Below, piece after piece: positions 13,691-16,115 of a stretch of DNA of 32,000 nt. The position numbers were made by a program, and so were the translations under genes. Source of the DNA: Candidatus Jordarchaeales archaeon (GTDB lineage Archaea > Asgardarchaeota > Jordiarchaeia > Jordiarchaeales > Freyrarchaeaceae); the NCBI GenBank assembly GCA_038858525.1, contig JAWCFL010000001.1, forward strand, positions 60,001-92,000, read 5' to 3'. How positions within the stretch are numbered: the first letter of the stretch is position 1; each line of letters starts with the position of its first letter. The notes under the pieces are model-generated. The model was not told the DNA's origin and ran no database searches. It saw nothing but the letters and a program-made list of their open reading frames with translations.

Positions 13691-14067
13691 CCAAAAATAA
13701 AAAAATACACAAAAACCACAAAAATACTTAACGCAATTTGAAAAAGAAAACCACCAAGTAATATTGTTATACCAAAAACACCATTATAACAAGGCAATTT
13801 GTAGTGCTGTTTTTTACACAGTATTTATTGTATAATCCTCCTTTATTCTCCTTTATAAGCACGCAATAAGTTTTAAGCGACGAAAGAAAAATATTACTCG
13901 TCAAAATAGCGTTATCCGTCAAATGATAGATTCACTTCCCGCAATATGAGCTAAGATTAGCGAAGAAACAAAAACAAAAAAGACGGCAAGCACCTCAACG
14001 AATAAAACCCCTTCCATCCTATGAAAGACGGAAAGAGCAACCAAAACAGTATATGTAAAAAATACAT

Positions 14068-14187
14068 CACGAAAAAATTAATAACGTCTCGAACAACAAG
14101 CTCGCTGAGCGCCCCGGTGGTGCAGCCACCCTACAGCTATAACGGCAGAGCATAAGGGATATCATAAGCCCTAAATCTCAATCCCCC
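14068..14187 (+). repeat. Decayed direct-repeat copy of the tRNA-Asp promoter and 5' part (partner at 15915-16032)
   Basis: CACGAAAAAATTAATA vs CACGAAAAATTTAATA, each ending 28 nt before GCCCCGGTGGTG. The shared ACAACAAG..GCTGAGCGCCCCGGTGGTG continues through homologs of introns 1 and 2; there is no T arm or 3' acceptor strand. Confidence 0.85.
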
Positions 14188-14286
14188 ACACTCATCCTCG
14201 TCTTCCTTACTTTTAGTGATGAAAGACTGCACTGCTGCCAAGAAAGAGAAGCTTCGGGTTTCATGCAATTCGCGGTGCTGCCGCCA

Positions 14287-14820
14287 CTACACTATGTTTG
14301 ACACCCTCAGCATCCACGCCACATACTTCATGTCCTCCTCACTCAGCTTCCCCGCCACCGAACCATTAAGGACCAGAAGCTTAGCCTTCCTGTCCGGCAG
14401 CGCCCCCATCACCTGGCCGAGTGCCACTACGAGCATCTCCCTAGGCAGCTTCTCCACGACAAGCCTCGCAACTTCAAGCTTAGCCTCCTTGTCCGGCATT
14501 CCGCCTATGATGTCTCCCGCCTTGCGTGCCATCTCTTCTGGCGGCAGTTTTTCGGTGATGGTTTTTGCGGCCTTGAACTTGTATTCTTGTGGTAGTGCCT
14601 TTATTATTCCGAGGGATTCGCTTGCTAGAACTTGTGGTGGTAGCTTCTGAGCTAGCTCTATTACCAGCTTTATGGCTTCCTCCTCTCTCCTATTCATCAC
14701 CAGCGTCTCTATTATTGGAGGTATCATTAACGGGTTTTTCAATGCAGTCTTTGAGGTACCACTCATACGAGAGACGGGCCATCCCCTCATCTCAATATAC
14801 TGCATACACTTCATCGCCAA
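14287..14820 (-). CDS. Hypothetical alpha-helical repeat protein
   Basis: Three to four repeats of about 33 aa: KLPPQVLA..IIKALP, KLPPEEMA..IIGGMPDKEAK, KLPREMLV..VMGALPDRKAK. The start may be internal (MSGTSK or MNRREE). Confidence 0.7.
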   Translation of the reverse strand: MAMKCMQYIEMRGWPVSRMSGTSKTALKNPLMIPPIIETLVMNRREEEAIKLVIELAQKLPPQVLASESLGIIKALPQEYKFKAAKTITEKLPPEEMARKAGDIIGGMPDKEAKLEVARLVVEKLPREMLVVALGQVMGALPDRKAKLLVLNGSVAGKLSEEDMKYVAWMLRVSNIV

Positions 14821-14824
14821 ACCC

Positions 14825-14998
14825 CTATCTGTCCCTAGGGAGTGTTAAAATTGTTTCGCACACCATTCTCTTCCGCTCCTCCGTCTTCGGCTCCGTTATT
14901 ATGGCGGGGATGATGACCGACGCATCATCCTTTGCCACCCTCTTGCAGTCCACAATAGTGATAATCGCCTCAACGTCTCCCATCTTCGCCCTCAACAC
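14825..14998 (-). CDS. Hypothetical 57-aa protein, absent from the ORF track
   Basis: GTG start 3 nt after the upstream stop; MLRAKMGDVEAIITIVDCKRVAKDDASVIIPAIITEPKTEERKRMVCETILTLPRDR; tightly packed between neighbours. Confidence 0.55.
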   Translation of the reverse strand: MLRAKMGDVEAIITIVDCKRVAKDDASVIIPAIITEPKTEERKRMVCETILTLPRDR

Positions 14999-15001
14999 GT
15001 A

Positions 15002-15370
15002 TTACCCGCTCTTCGGCTTTCCCAGAAGCGTTAAGGTTAGGTCTCCCCTGGTGAGGGTGGCGTCCGGATGCTTAATGAGCGACCAGAGCTCAGTTGAGAA
15101 GGAGCCAGCGTTGACCAGTATAGGGATGGGGACGCCGCGCCCCCCAGTCATTTCCGTGACGCCCTTAACCTCCCTAACGATGCTTGTGATCGTTTCGAGT
15201 GAGGCTGTGTCGCTGGAGGTCTTCGCCTCAAACATGAATATGAGCGGCCCGCCGCCCTCGAGCTCCACCCTCTTCTCCCCAGGTAGGAACCCCTTGATGA
15301 AACCGAGCACCTTCTCCGCCAGCCCACCCCTCTTAACGTCCTCCAGCGACACCACAGTAAGATCGATCAT
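15002..15370 (-). CDS. Hypothetical protein
   Basis: ATG preceded by GGAGGAGG; globular composition; part of a co-oriented gene string. Confidence 0.65.
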   Translation of the reverse strand: MIDLTVVSLEDVKRGGLAEKVLGFIKGFLPGEKRVELEGGGPLIFMFEAKTSSDTASLETITSIVREVKGVTEMTGGRGVPIPILVNAGSFSTELWSLIKHPDATLTRGDLTLTLLGKPKSG

Positions 15371-15623
15371 CTTCCTCCTCCCCCAACTCCCTTACCGTCA
15401 GCTCCCTGGCATCTATCACTCCCTTAATCCCGGCAAGTGCACAGATGACGTCAACTAGGAGGCTGTGGGCTCCCCTCACCCCACCCTCAGCTTTCCCCCC
15501 AGTACTCCCAGCTTCCTGAAGGAAGCTGTCGAGGGTTACGTATCTGCTCTCGCGCCTTCCACCCTCGCAACGCTCACACCCTTCCCTCATCCTCCCACCC
15601 CCATCTGCGCGGCAGCAAAACAC
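15333..15623 (-). CDS. Hypothetical protein with CxxC (likely start MREGCERCEGG)
   Basis: Purine-rich coding-like strand; overlaps the next gene by 38 nt. Confidence 0.35.
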   Translation of the reverse strand: MFCCRADGGGRMREGCERCEGGRRESRYVTLDSFLQEAGSTGGKAEGGVRGAHSLLVDVICALAGIKGVIDARELTVRELGEEEDDRSYCGVAGGR

Positions 15624-15914
15624 CCACCCCTCAGTGTATTAAACTTTGCGCTCTCAAAGCCATCCCCTCACCCACAACCCCACCAGAACGCACCCGGCGC
15701 CACTCTCTCCCAACACCCATACACACAACCACTCTAACCCCGAGCCAGCAACCCACCCGAACCAACAATAACGCACATAAAAGCACTACTTAATCCACAC
15801 AACCAAAGACGACCACCACGAAATCACCCCCAACAGCCCTAACCAGCCGCAACAAAACCACAACAACAAAAAACACAACACAGCTACACCCCCAAACGAA
15901 ACCACCCCGCCAAC

Positions 15915-15930
15915 CACGAAAAATTTAATA
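15915..15930 (+). promoter_or_regulatory. BRE/TATA promoter of tRNA-Asp
   Basis: GAAAAA followed by TTTAATA, ending 28 nt upstream of mature G1; conserved in the duplicate copy. Confidence 0.7.
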
Positions 15931-15957
15931 GCACGCCACACAACAAGTTTGCTGAGC

Positions 15958-16115
15958 GCCCCGGTGGTGTAGCCACCATAAAACGGCTGTAACGGCCGAG
16001 CATACGGGACAGTGATAAGCCCCTAATGTCAACGACGGTGGCAGAACTCCCGCGACCCGGGCGGTGCACCCTTTTTTGGGTGTATTAGGGATTTCAAATC
16101 CCGGCCGGGGCGCCA
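15958..16115 (+). tRNA. tRNA-Asp(GUC) with four introns (17/17a 15975-15992; 32/33 16011-16026; 37/38 16032-16046; 53/54 16062-16092); CCA encoded
   Basis: Removing 80 nt gives the 78-nt GCCCCGG UG GUGU AGCCCGGCCGA GCAU A CGGGA CUGUCAC UCCCG CGACC CGGG UUCAAAU CCCGG CCGGGGC G CCA. Each insert forms a BHB-like motif. Confidence 0.9.

Follow-up and report, generated by a model that had tools for sequence, protein, structure and literature searches.

The window analysed here is a stretch of 32,000 nt, positions 60001-92000 of one contig (G000:C1:60001-92000) of an assembly of 2.09 Mb in 63 contigs that is 92.7% complete. The source organism belongs to the Jordiarchaeia, a class with 11 species genomes in two families, and the tRNA genes of this class are heavily interrupted and rank among the most interrupted known (bioRxiv 10.64898/2026.10.13.758758). 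Three genomes of the same genus, Jordarchaeum (G001, G002 and G003), and one genome of the sister genus (G004) served for comparison. ARAGORN and Rfam detected no tRNA feature in the window, neither the intact gene nor the fragment described below, and a search of the whole genome with RF00005 returned just eight matches, weak or strong. tRNA identities were therefore established by splicing in silico, followed by ARAGORN.

The window contains a complete tRNA-Asp(GUC) gene and, 1.85 kb upstream of it, a second promoter with the 5' fragment of such a gene (Table 1). Removal of four introns in silico, one more than the initial annotation had counted, turned the complete gene into a perfect tRNA-Asp(gtc) cloverleaf. 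With its four introns, and with D-arm introns that standard callers miss, the gene is typical of the tRNA genes surveyed in a recent preprint (bioRxiv 10.64898/2026.10.13.758758). The fold of its pre-tRNA is better than that of shuffled sequences (z -2.78). In the predicted minimum-energy structure, GCCACC at the exon-1/intron-1 junction (15972-15977) pairs with GGUGGC in the 37/38 intron (16038-16043), and according to this model intron 1 and the 37/38 intron may interact before splicing. A separate observation concerns the D-loop introns of tRNA-Asp (15975-15992) and of tRNA-Glu(CUC) (C1:94706-94722), which occupy the same position and have common ends, ACC...GGCTGTAA, in all four congeners. 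Judged by position and ends, they are one intron family across two tRNA types.

Table 1. Features of the tRNA-Asp(GUC) locus (positions in the window).
Feature	Position	Strand	Remarks
Left promoter and leader	14068-14110	+	BRE/TATA CACGAAAAAATTAATAA at 14068-14084
Truncated, decayed tRNA-Asp-like 5' part	14111-14191	+	Repeat alignments, BLAST
Fragment exon 1	14111-14127	+	
Fragment intron-1 homologue	14128-14142	+	
Fragment exon 2	14143-14160	+	
Fragment intron-2 homologue	14161-14175	+	
Fragment anticodon region UCUCA	14176-14180	+	
Fragment 3' anticodon-stem strand remnant	14181-14191	+	
Inserted foreign DNA	14192-15914	.	About 1.72 kb, G+C 0.545; absent from relatives
Pseudogene	14287-15370	-	Pieces 14287-14820, 14825-14998 and 15002-15370; broken, 5'-truncated relative of a 751-aa gene
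96-aa ORF	15333-15623	-	No relative detected
C/A-rich tract, almost no G or T	15600-15914	+	Part of the insert, reaches up to the right promoter
Right promoter and leader	15915-15957	+	CACGAAAAATTTAATAG; drives the intact gene
Intact tRNA-Asp(GUC) gene	15958-16115	+	Four introns, encoded CCA; ARAGORN after splicing; orthologues in G001-G004
Introns of the intact gene	15975-15992, 16011-16026, 16032-16046 (37/38), 16062-16092	+	

The stretch from 14068 to 14191 repeats part of the tRNA-Asp(GUC) gene at 15915-16115, namely its promoter and tRNA positions 1 to about 43-47. Two blocks align without gaps, 14068-14133 with 15915-15980 (66 nt, 82% identity) and 14164-14181 with 16015-16032 (83%), and a BLAST search of the entire genome with this region gave 80% identity over 114 nt (E 8.9e-21). 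The duplication of a promoter together with a 5' tRNA fragment, as initially annotated, is therefore real. In the gapped alignment the similarity extends from the BRE/TATA box through the 3' strand of the anticodon stem, and the homology tapers off at 14187-14191. Both copies lie on the plus strand (14068-14191 and 15915-16055), with the complete gene at the right border, and a search of the whole assembly revealed no third copy. The longest identical run between them comprises 19 nt (GCTGAGCGCCCCGGTGGTG, -5 to +14 of the gene). Such a run occurs by chance in 27% of 120-nt alignments at 80% identity (P ~0.27); it is thus no longer than chance allows, and no att core can be defined.

A genome-wide self-BLAST search for other tRNA 5' fragments found none, the matches being tRNA paralogues and one scaffold-gap artefact. 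At C7:11840-11939, 100 N are flanked by a perfect 127-nt duplication, which is an artefact of scaffolding and not a biological repeat. For the locus in the window an assembly chimera was rejected, because no exact run longer than 19 nt exists between the copies and both flanks are syntenic with the relatives.

The fragment has retained many properties of the intact gene, and most details of its initial description hold. TTAATA ends 28 nt before position +1 in both copies (14083 to 14111 and 15930 to 15958), the U13>C exchange in the D arm leaves a pair of C13 with G22, the intron homologues are shortened (15 versus 18 nt for intron 1, 15 versus 16 nt for intron 2), and AGGG (14155-14158) and CCCU (14170-14173) are able to form the intron-2 helix. 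The anticodon region UCUCA is indeed followed by A-UCCCC without a 37/38 intron; however, the stem does not close cleanly as had been supposed, because A27 and C43 are mismatched. The extra A that had been noted in the promoter is actually an A/T substitution. Nothing is left in the fragment of the T arm, of the 3' acceptor strand or of the rest of the variable loop. Directly after it lies a pyrimidine-rich, trailer-like tract (14192-14212, CATCCTCGTCTTCCTTACTTT), with a T4 run at 14209-14212.

Seven of the 46 exon positions that are invariant in the tRNA-Asp genes of G000-G003 are altered in the fragment: U13C, three positions in exon 2, G34C, C38A and G43C. They include the A27-C43 mismatch and bear out the earlier view that the mismatches are a sign of decay. 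The CUC anticodon is explained in the same way, since it is due to one of these seven substitutions at genus-invariant positions. A search of 185,579 species genomes and of the viral contigs of IMG/VR found the exon 2 of the fragment in none of them, and therefore a living gene with this sequence is not known. The predicted fold of the fragment RNA is no better than that of shuffled sequences (z -0.24 and -0.08), and neither Rfam nor ARAGORN yielded a match on the fragment. The fragment is a relic, and genomic evidence effectively excludes the functional readings.

Each of the four relatives has one tRNA-Asp gene at the syntenic site, with the gene for a KaiC-like ATPase to the left and tRNA-Pro and serS to the right. 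The KaiC-like gene and tRNA-Asp are adjacent in G001-G003, and the spacing between the flank matches is 66-490 nt in the relatives compared to about 2.2 kb here. Neither the fragment nor the insert is present at this site in G001, G002, G003 or G004. A comparison with relatives had been proposed as a check on integration, and, as the interval is missing in all four, it is lineage-specific. With a G+C content of 0.545 the insert also deviates from the genome (0.474) and from the loci of the relatives (0.43-0.47). One further box was seen in G002, which lacks the insert. About 35 nt upstream of the real promoter of tRNA-Asp, this genome has a second, degenerate BRE/TATA-like sequence (G002:C1:741280-741300, GCGAAAAATTTGTAAG). 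It may be left over from an earlier event, or it may serve as the promoter of the divergent gene.

The open reading frames of the insert had been taken for an orphan operon, which they are not, as at least three of the four are pieces of a single pseudogene. A 177-aa ORF matches residues 480-751 of a 751-aa protein (E 5e-32) and a 122-aa ORF residues 294-409 (E 1e-25). A six-frame match at 14729-15382 covers residues 283-504 and contains one internal TGA, one TAG and one TAA; at 15002-15004 the pseudogene has a TAA where the paralogue has Tyr. The first ~290 codons are missing altogether. The 96-aa ORF has neither a Pfam match nor significant similarity to the 751-aa protein, and may represent either a chance ORF or upstream debris that belongs to the pseudogene. 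The C/A-rich tract at the right end of the insert spans about 300 nt, has a GC skew of -0.50 to -0.53 and an AT skew of up to +0.54, and is without a counterpart upstream of tRNA-Asp in the relatives. Similar C/A-rich sequence was observed upstream of another tRNA gene (C3:47400-47480) and beside an island on contig C2.

The intact paralogue of the pseudogene, a gene for 751 aa, is located at C2:120673-122925, within this second island of high G+C content (0.59). The island (C2:120400-123349) starts right after a Pus10-like gene and ends in a poly-C contig end, the rest being unassembled. Besides an HTH_31 gene it carries the 751-aa gene, whose product is an HTH/helical-repeat protein containing three perfect tandem repeats of 33 aa. 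The 751-aa protein has an N-terminal HTH and weak, low-TM structural leads to Mrr-like proteins (ESM Atlas), and searches of Pfam, PHROGs, PADLOC and NCBIfam returned nothing usable. Its family is nearly an orphan, with only three near-identical proteins among 5.8 billion. It is absent from G001-G003, and pattern searches and tblastn found no member in GTDB species genomes or in IMG/VR; among 400 genomes of the phylum there were two weak partial matches to the protein in G004 and one in another family.

No hallmark gene of mobile elements was found in the insert with Pfam, PHROGs, PADLOC or NCBIfam, and an integrase (PF00589) was detected neither among the ORFs of the insert nor anywhere in the 92.7%-complete assembly. 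It may have been lost by deletion together with the rest of the element. The G+C content, the lineage-specific presence and the broken copy of a near-orphan accessory gene identify the insert as a decayed rump of accessory DNA, which is probably of mobile nature.

The two promoters differ in their surroundings. The left promoter is identical at 33 of 43 positions to the right promoter and, likewise, at 33 of 43 to the promoter of G003. Upstream of the BRE only the left copy has similarity to G003, a weak collinear match lies further upstream at 13950-14004, and nothing upstream of the right BRE is similar to any relative. The leader of the right promoter is C/A-rich like the insert, which it abuts. 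From these sequences, the left promoter is probably the resident, ancestral one, and the right promoter was probably brought in by the insert.

Taken together, it is quite likely that an insertion into the 5' part of the tRNA-Asp(GUC) gene left the fragment behind as a non-functional scar. The initial annotation had offered an att scar as one of its readings, and the absence of the interval in all four relatives, the foreign base composition and the broken gene inside agree with it. Foreign DNA of higher G+C content would have carried its own tRNA-Asp promoter and, together with the introns, about 45 positions from the start of the gene. One Campbell-type crossover with the resident gene, catalysed by a site-specific recombinase or occurring by homologous recombination in conserved exon sequence, would then have joined the two. 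The left product would consist of the resident promoter and a 5' part of the tRNA that ends where the incoming homology ended, the middle would be the incoming DNA, and to the right the incoming promoter would precede a complete, working gene. The incoming promoter would keep the sole tRNA-Asp gene expressed. For this reason an insertion on the 5' side has to duplicate the promoter. Subsequent decay would have introduced the exon substitutions into the left copy and the nonsense codons into the cargo gene, and most of the element would have been lost. The edges of the repeat, from exactly the start of the BRE to about position 45, are as expected of a single crossover with a promoter-bearing 5' segment.

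Duplication of the 5' part had been called the less common geometry; it is indeed rarer than duplication of the 3' part, but it has a published precedent. Either terminus of a tRNA gene can be an attachment site (PMC3293823). In Caldiarchaeum subterraneum, a 5' fragment (tRNA-Thr-F) lies 1.8 kb upstream of the full tRNA-Thr(GGU) gene (tRNA-Thr-II), with an insert of 1,868 bp (Sugahara et al. 2012, PMC3293823). The model put forward for that locus is that an element integrated whose attP contained the tRNA's 5' part with an intron (PMC3293823), and this model fits the locus described here. In both archaea the 5' fragment lies as a direct repeat some 1.8 kb upstream of the complete gene, which has one intron more than the fragment; the insertion between the two is missing from other genomes of the genus or population, and relatives of the inserted DNA exist elsewhere in the genome. 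However, the fragment of the Jordarchaeum locus is old and decayed (80% identity, compared to 100% in Caldiarchaeum), and it reaches to about position 45 and includes a promoter and two intron homologues. Also unlike Caldiarchaeum, the insert contains a pseudogene and no recognisable recombinase gene, the extra (37/38) intron occurs also in a congener without the insert, and the host is an Asgard archaeon instead of an aigarchaeon.

With integrations of the SSV1 and pNOB8 type the locus shares the partial duplication of a tRNA gene, the foreign DNA between the copies and the restoration of a working gene at one border (PMC3293823, PMC3218864). In these classical cases the duplicated part is the 3' part, the copies of about 40-60 bp are identical, and the integrase gene is split or adjacent (PMC3293823, PMC3218864). 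Here, in contrast, the 5' part is duplicated together with the promoter, over about 120 nt, the copies have diverged, and an integrase is missing.

Several findings speak against this origin. The ages are at odds with a single simple event, since 15% of the constrained exon sites are changed in the fragment, while introns 1-3 of the intact gene differ from those of G002 at only 6%. In addition, the insert contains no recognisable recombinase gene and the copies are just about 80% identical. Scans of species genomes and viral contigs revealed no free or intact element with a tRNA-Asp 5' segment, and a metagenome scan for such segments found the G003 sequence again and nothing else. The repeat could have arisen without an attachment site, either by a local duplication of the promoter and the 5' part with later entry of unrelated DNA between the copies, or from an incoming complete tRNA-Asp/Glu-like gene that lost its 3' third. 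In keeping with the latter, A27, C34 and A38 of the fragment are the states found in tRNA-Glu(CUC), and the tRNA-Thr(GGU) gene on C12 has a 3' trailer similar to the tract at 14192-14212 (19 matches and a 2-nt gap), so that the fragment could be an internally deleted second gene. The missing recombinase would also be accounted for. However, this origin would need two or three independent events at one spot, whereas the repeat edges fit a single crossover exactly. The best matches of the fragment are tRNA-Asp loci and not tRNA-Glu loci, and the similarity to C12 is only marginally above chance (E 0.012-0.26) and is followed by ordinary host genes. The trailer of tRNA-Thr(GGU) and the tract after the tRNA-Asp fragment have CATCC-GTCTTCCTTACTTT in common, and this likeness is probably due to chance or to a common trailer motif. 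An origin of either kind is therefore regarded as improbable. As an aside, the tRNA-Thr(GGU) gene itself is preceded, at C12:51921-51939 (minus strand), by a second copy of its own first seven bases (GCCCCGG AAGTT GCCCCGGTG).

Considerably less credible is the proposal that the fragment is transcribed as a tRNA mimic, as an antisense regulator of the neighbouring genes or as a binder of a tRNA-recognising protein. Its promoter elements look no worse than those of functioning tRNA genes of the same genome, and the T4 run at 14209-14212 could terminate a transcript of about 100 nt. Yet the supposed antisense target is the pseudogene, the substitutions have hit constrained tRNA positions, no Rfam family matches, the relatives lack the fragment, and its RNA folds no better than shuffles. 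The mimic suggested by the initial annotation has thus found no backing, neither in the fold (z -0.1 to -0.2) nor in conservation among the relatives. And, of course, leftover transcription of a scar would not amount to a function.

The weakest proposal is that the fragment is the 5' half of a split tRNA gene, trans-spliced to a separate 3' half to yield tRNA-Glu(CUC) or a second tRNA-Asp. Split tRNA genes have been found in Nanoarchaeum, in Caldivirga, for tRNA-Asp(GUC) both in Aeropyrum and in Thermosphaera, and for tRNA-Lys in Staphylothermus (Chan, Cozen & Lowe 2011, PMC3218864). They are thus known from other thermophilic archaea also for the isoacceptor concerned here (PMC3218864), and like such a half the fragment is a promoter-bearing 5' tRNA piece that stands alone, with the BRE/TATA at the right spacing of 28 nt, an intact acceptor strand and D arm, and a CUC anticodon region. 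True halves have a partner 3' half with a complementary leader, are the sole source of their tRNA and are conserved; nothing of this applies here. In the 92.7%-complete assembly a T-loop with an acceptor strand at most one mismatch away from CCGGGGC exists only in tRNA-Asp and tRNA-Thr(GGU), both of which are whole genes. No seed of at least 11 nt complementary to the trailer of the fragment adjoins a T arm, candidate duplex energies are at background level, and the 3' half with a complementary leader that the initial annotation had recommended looking for was not found in the assembly. The same annotation had asked whether tRNA-Glu(CUC) is otherwise missing. It is not, because an intact gene with three introns lies at C1:94590-94739 (minus strand), 2.6 kb beyond the end of the window; tRNA-Glu(UUC), on C12, and tRNA-Asp(GTC) are likewise intact, and the acceptor stem of tRNA-Glu differs (GCCUCGG). 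With the A27-C43 mismatch and the absence of the fragment from all four relatives in addition, a split gene is hardly conceivable at this locus. Partial tRNA fragments have also been catalogued, and they were attributed to integrations or rearrangements (Chan et al., PMC3218864).

With the fragment regarded as the scar of an insertion, the 37/38 intron of the intact gene (16032-16046) becomes of special interest. It is identical in G000 and G002 and absent from G001, G003 and the fragment. G001 and G003 thus have neither the intron nor the insert, and G002 has the intron without the insert. The fragment is not the 5' part of an allele without this intron, as 7 of the 46 invariant exon positions differ and its intron 2 is of the long type found in G000 and G002. 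A lineage-specific 37/38 intron represents the kind of recent gain that was counted in a census of tRNA introns, which found no signal of mobile elements near the gains and left the route of arrival open (bioRxiv 10.64898/2026.10.13.758758).

G002 is the most distant congener, its identity being 75.5% for serS and 77% across 7 kb (G003: 84%). Nevertheless, the tRNA-Asp genes of G000 and G002 are identical at 111 of 118 positions from about -8 to the T stem, compared to 227 of 304 in the rest of the tRNA cluster (p 2e-6), and introns 1-3 at 46 of 49 positions, compared to 66 of 93 in control introns (p 0.001). When indels were collapsed to single events and phylogenetically informative sites were used, the difference was weaker (p 0.035 and 0.008). 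An alignment of 15943-16061 of the window with G002:C1:741350-741460 shows 94% identity, with flanks of 75-77%. This pattern suggests that a tract of about 120 nt was exchanged recently.

The patch shared by G000 and G002 covers the same segment as the duplication, which points to a replacement of the resident 5' two-thirds of the gene by the incoming DNA, with the intron brought along. There is a hint, though no proof, that tRNA introns are moved by insertions of this kind. The scar would then record how Asgard tRNA genes gain or exchange introns. A mobile or transferred DNA with a promoter and an intron-bearing 5' segment of tRNA-Asp would have recombined into the gene, replaced the 5' two-thirds and delivered the 37/38 intron, and the same segment would have reached G002, where the insert was later lost by recombination between the repeats (pop-in, pop-out). 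We regard this extension as tentative and rather doubtful. The ages disagree (15% versus 6%), G002 has the intron and no insert, and the same patch would result from homologous exchange over a short tract delimited by conserved exons. These points could be reconciled by one event if G000 imported the whole cassette, i.e., the old fragment, the insert and the 5' patch, from a G002-like donor via homologous recombination in the tRNA gene, which is a conjecture.

The fragment should be annotated as a pseudo-tRNA fragment and not as a gene; by itself it is debris. The locus belongs to a known type of scar, of an ordinary kind, at a site where a tRNA intron is present in some sister species and absent from others. 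It combines this variable intron with a 5' segment that is oddly similar in distant congeners and a hallmark-free scar that duplicates this very segment. Screens that rely on hallmark genes would miss remnants of this sort, and the screen of the tRNA intron census (bioRxiv 10.64898/2026.10.13.758758) would have missed this one. The model of intron gain by integration that was developed for Caldiarchaeum thereby becomes testable in Asgard archaea. Moreover, a tRNA gene with multiple introns still served as a target of recombination, which bears on the idea that introns shield tRNA genes from integration.
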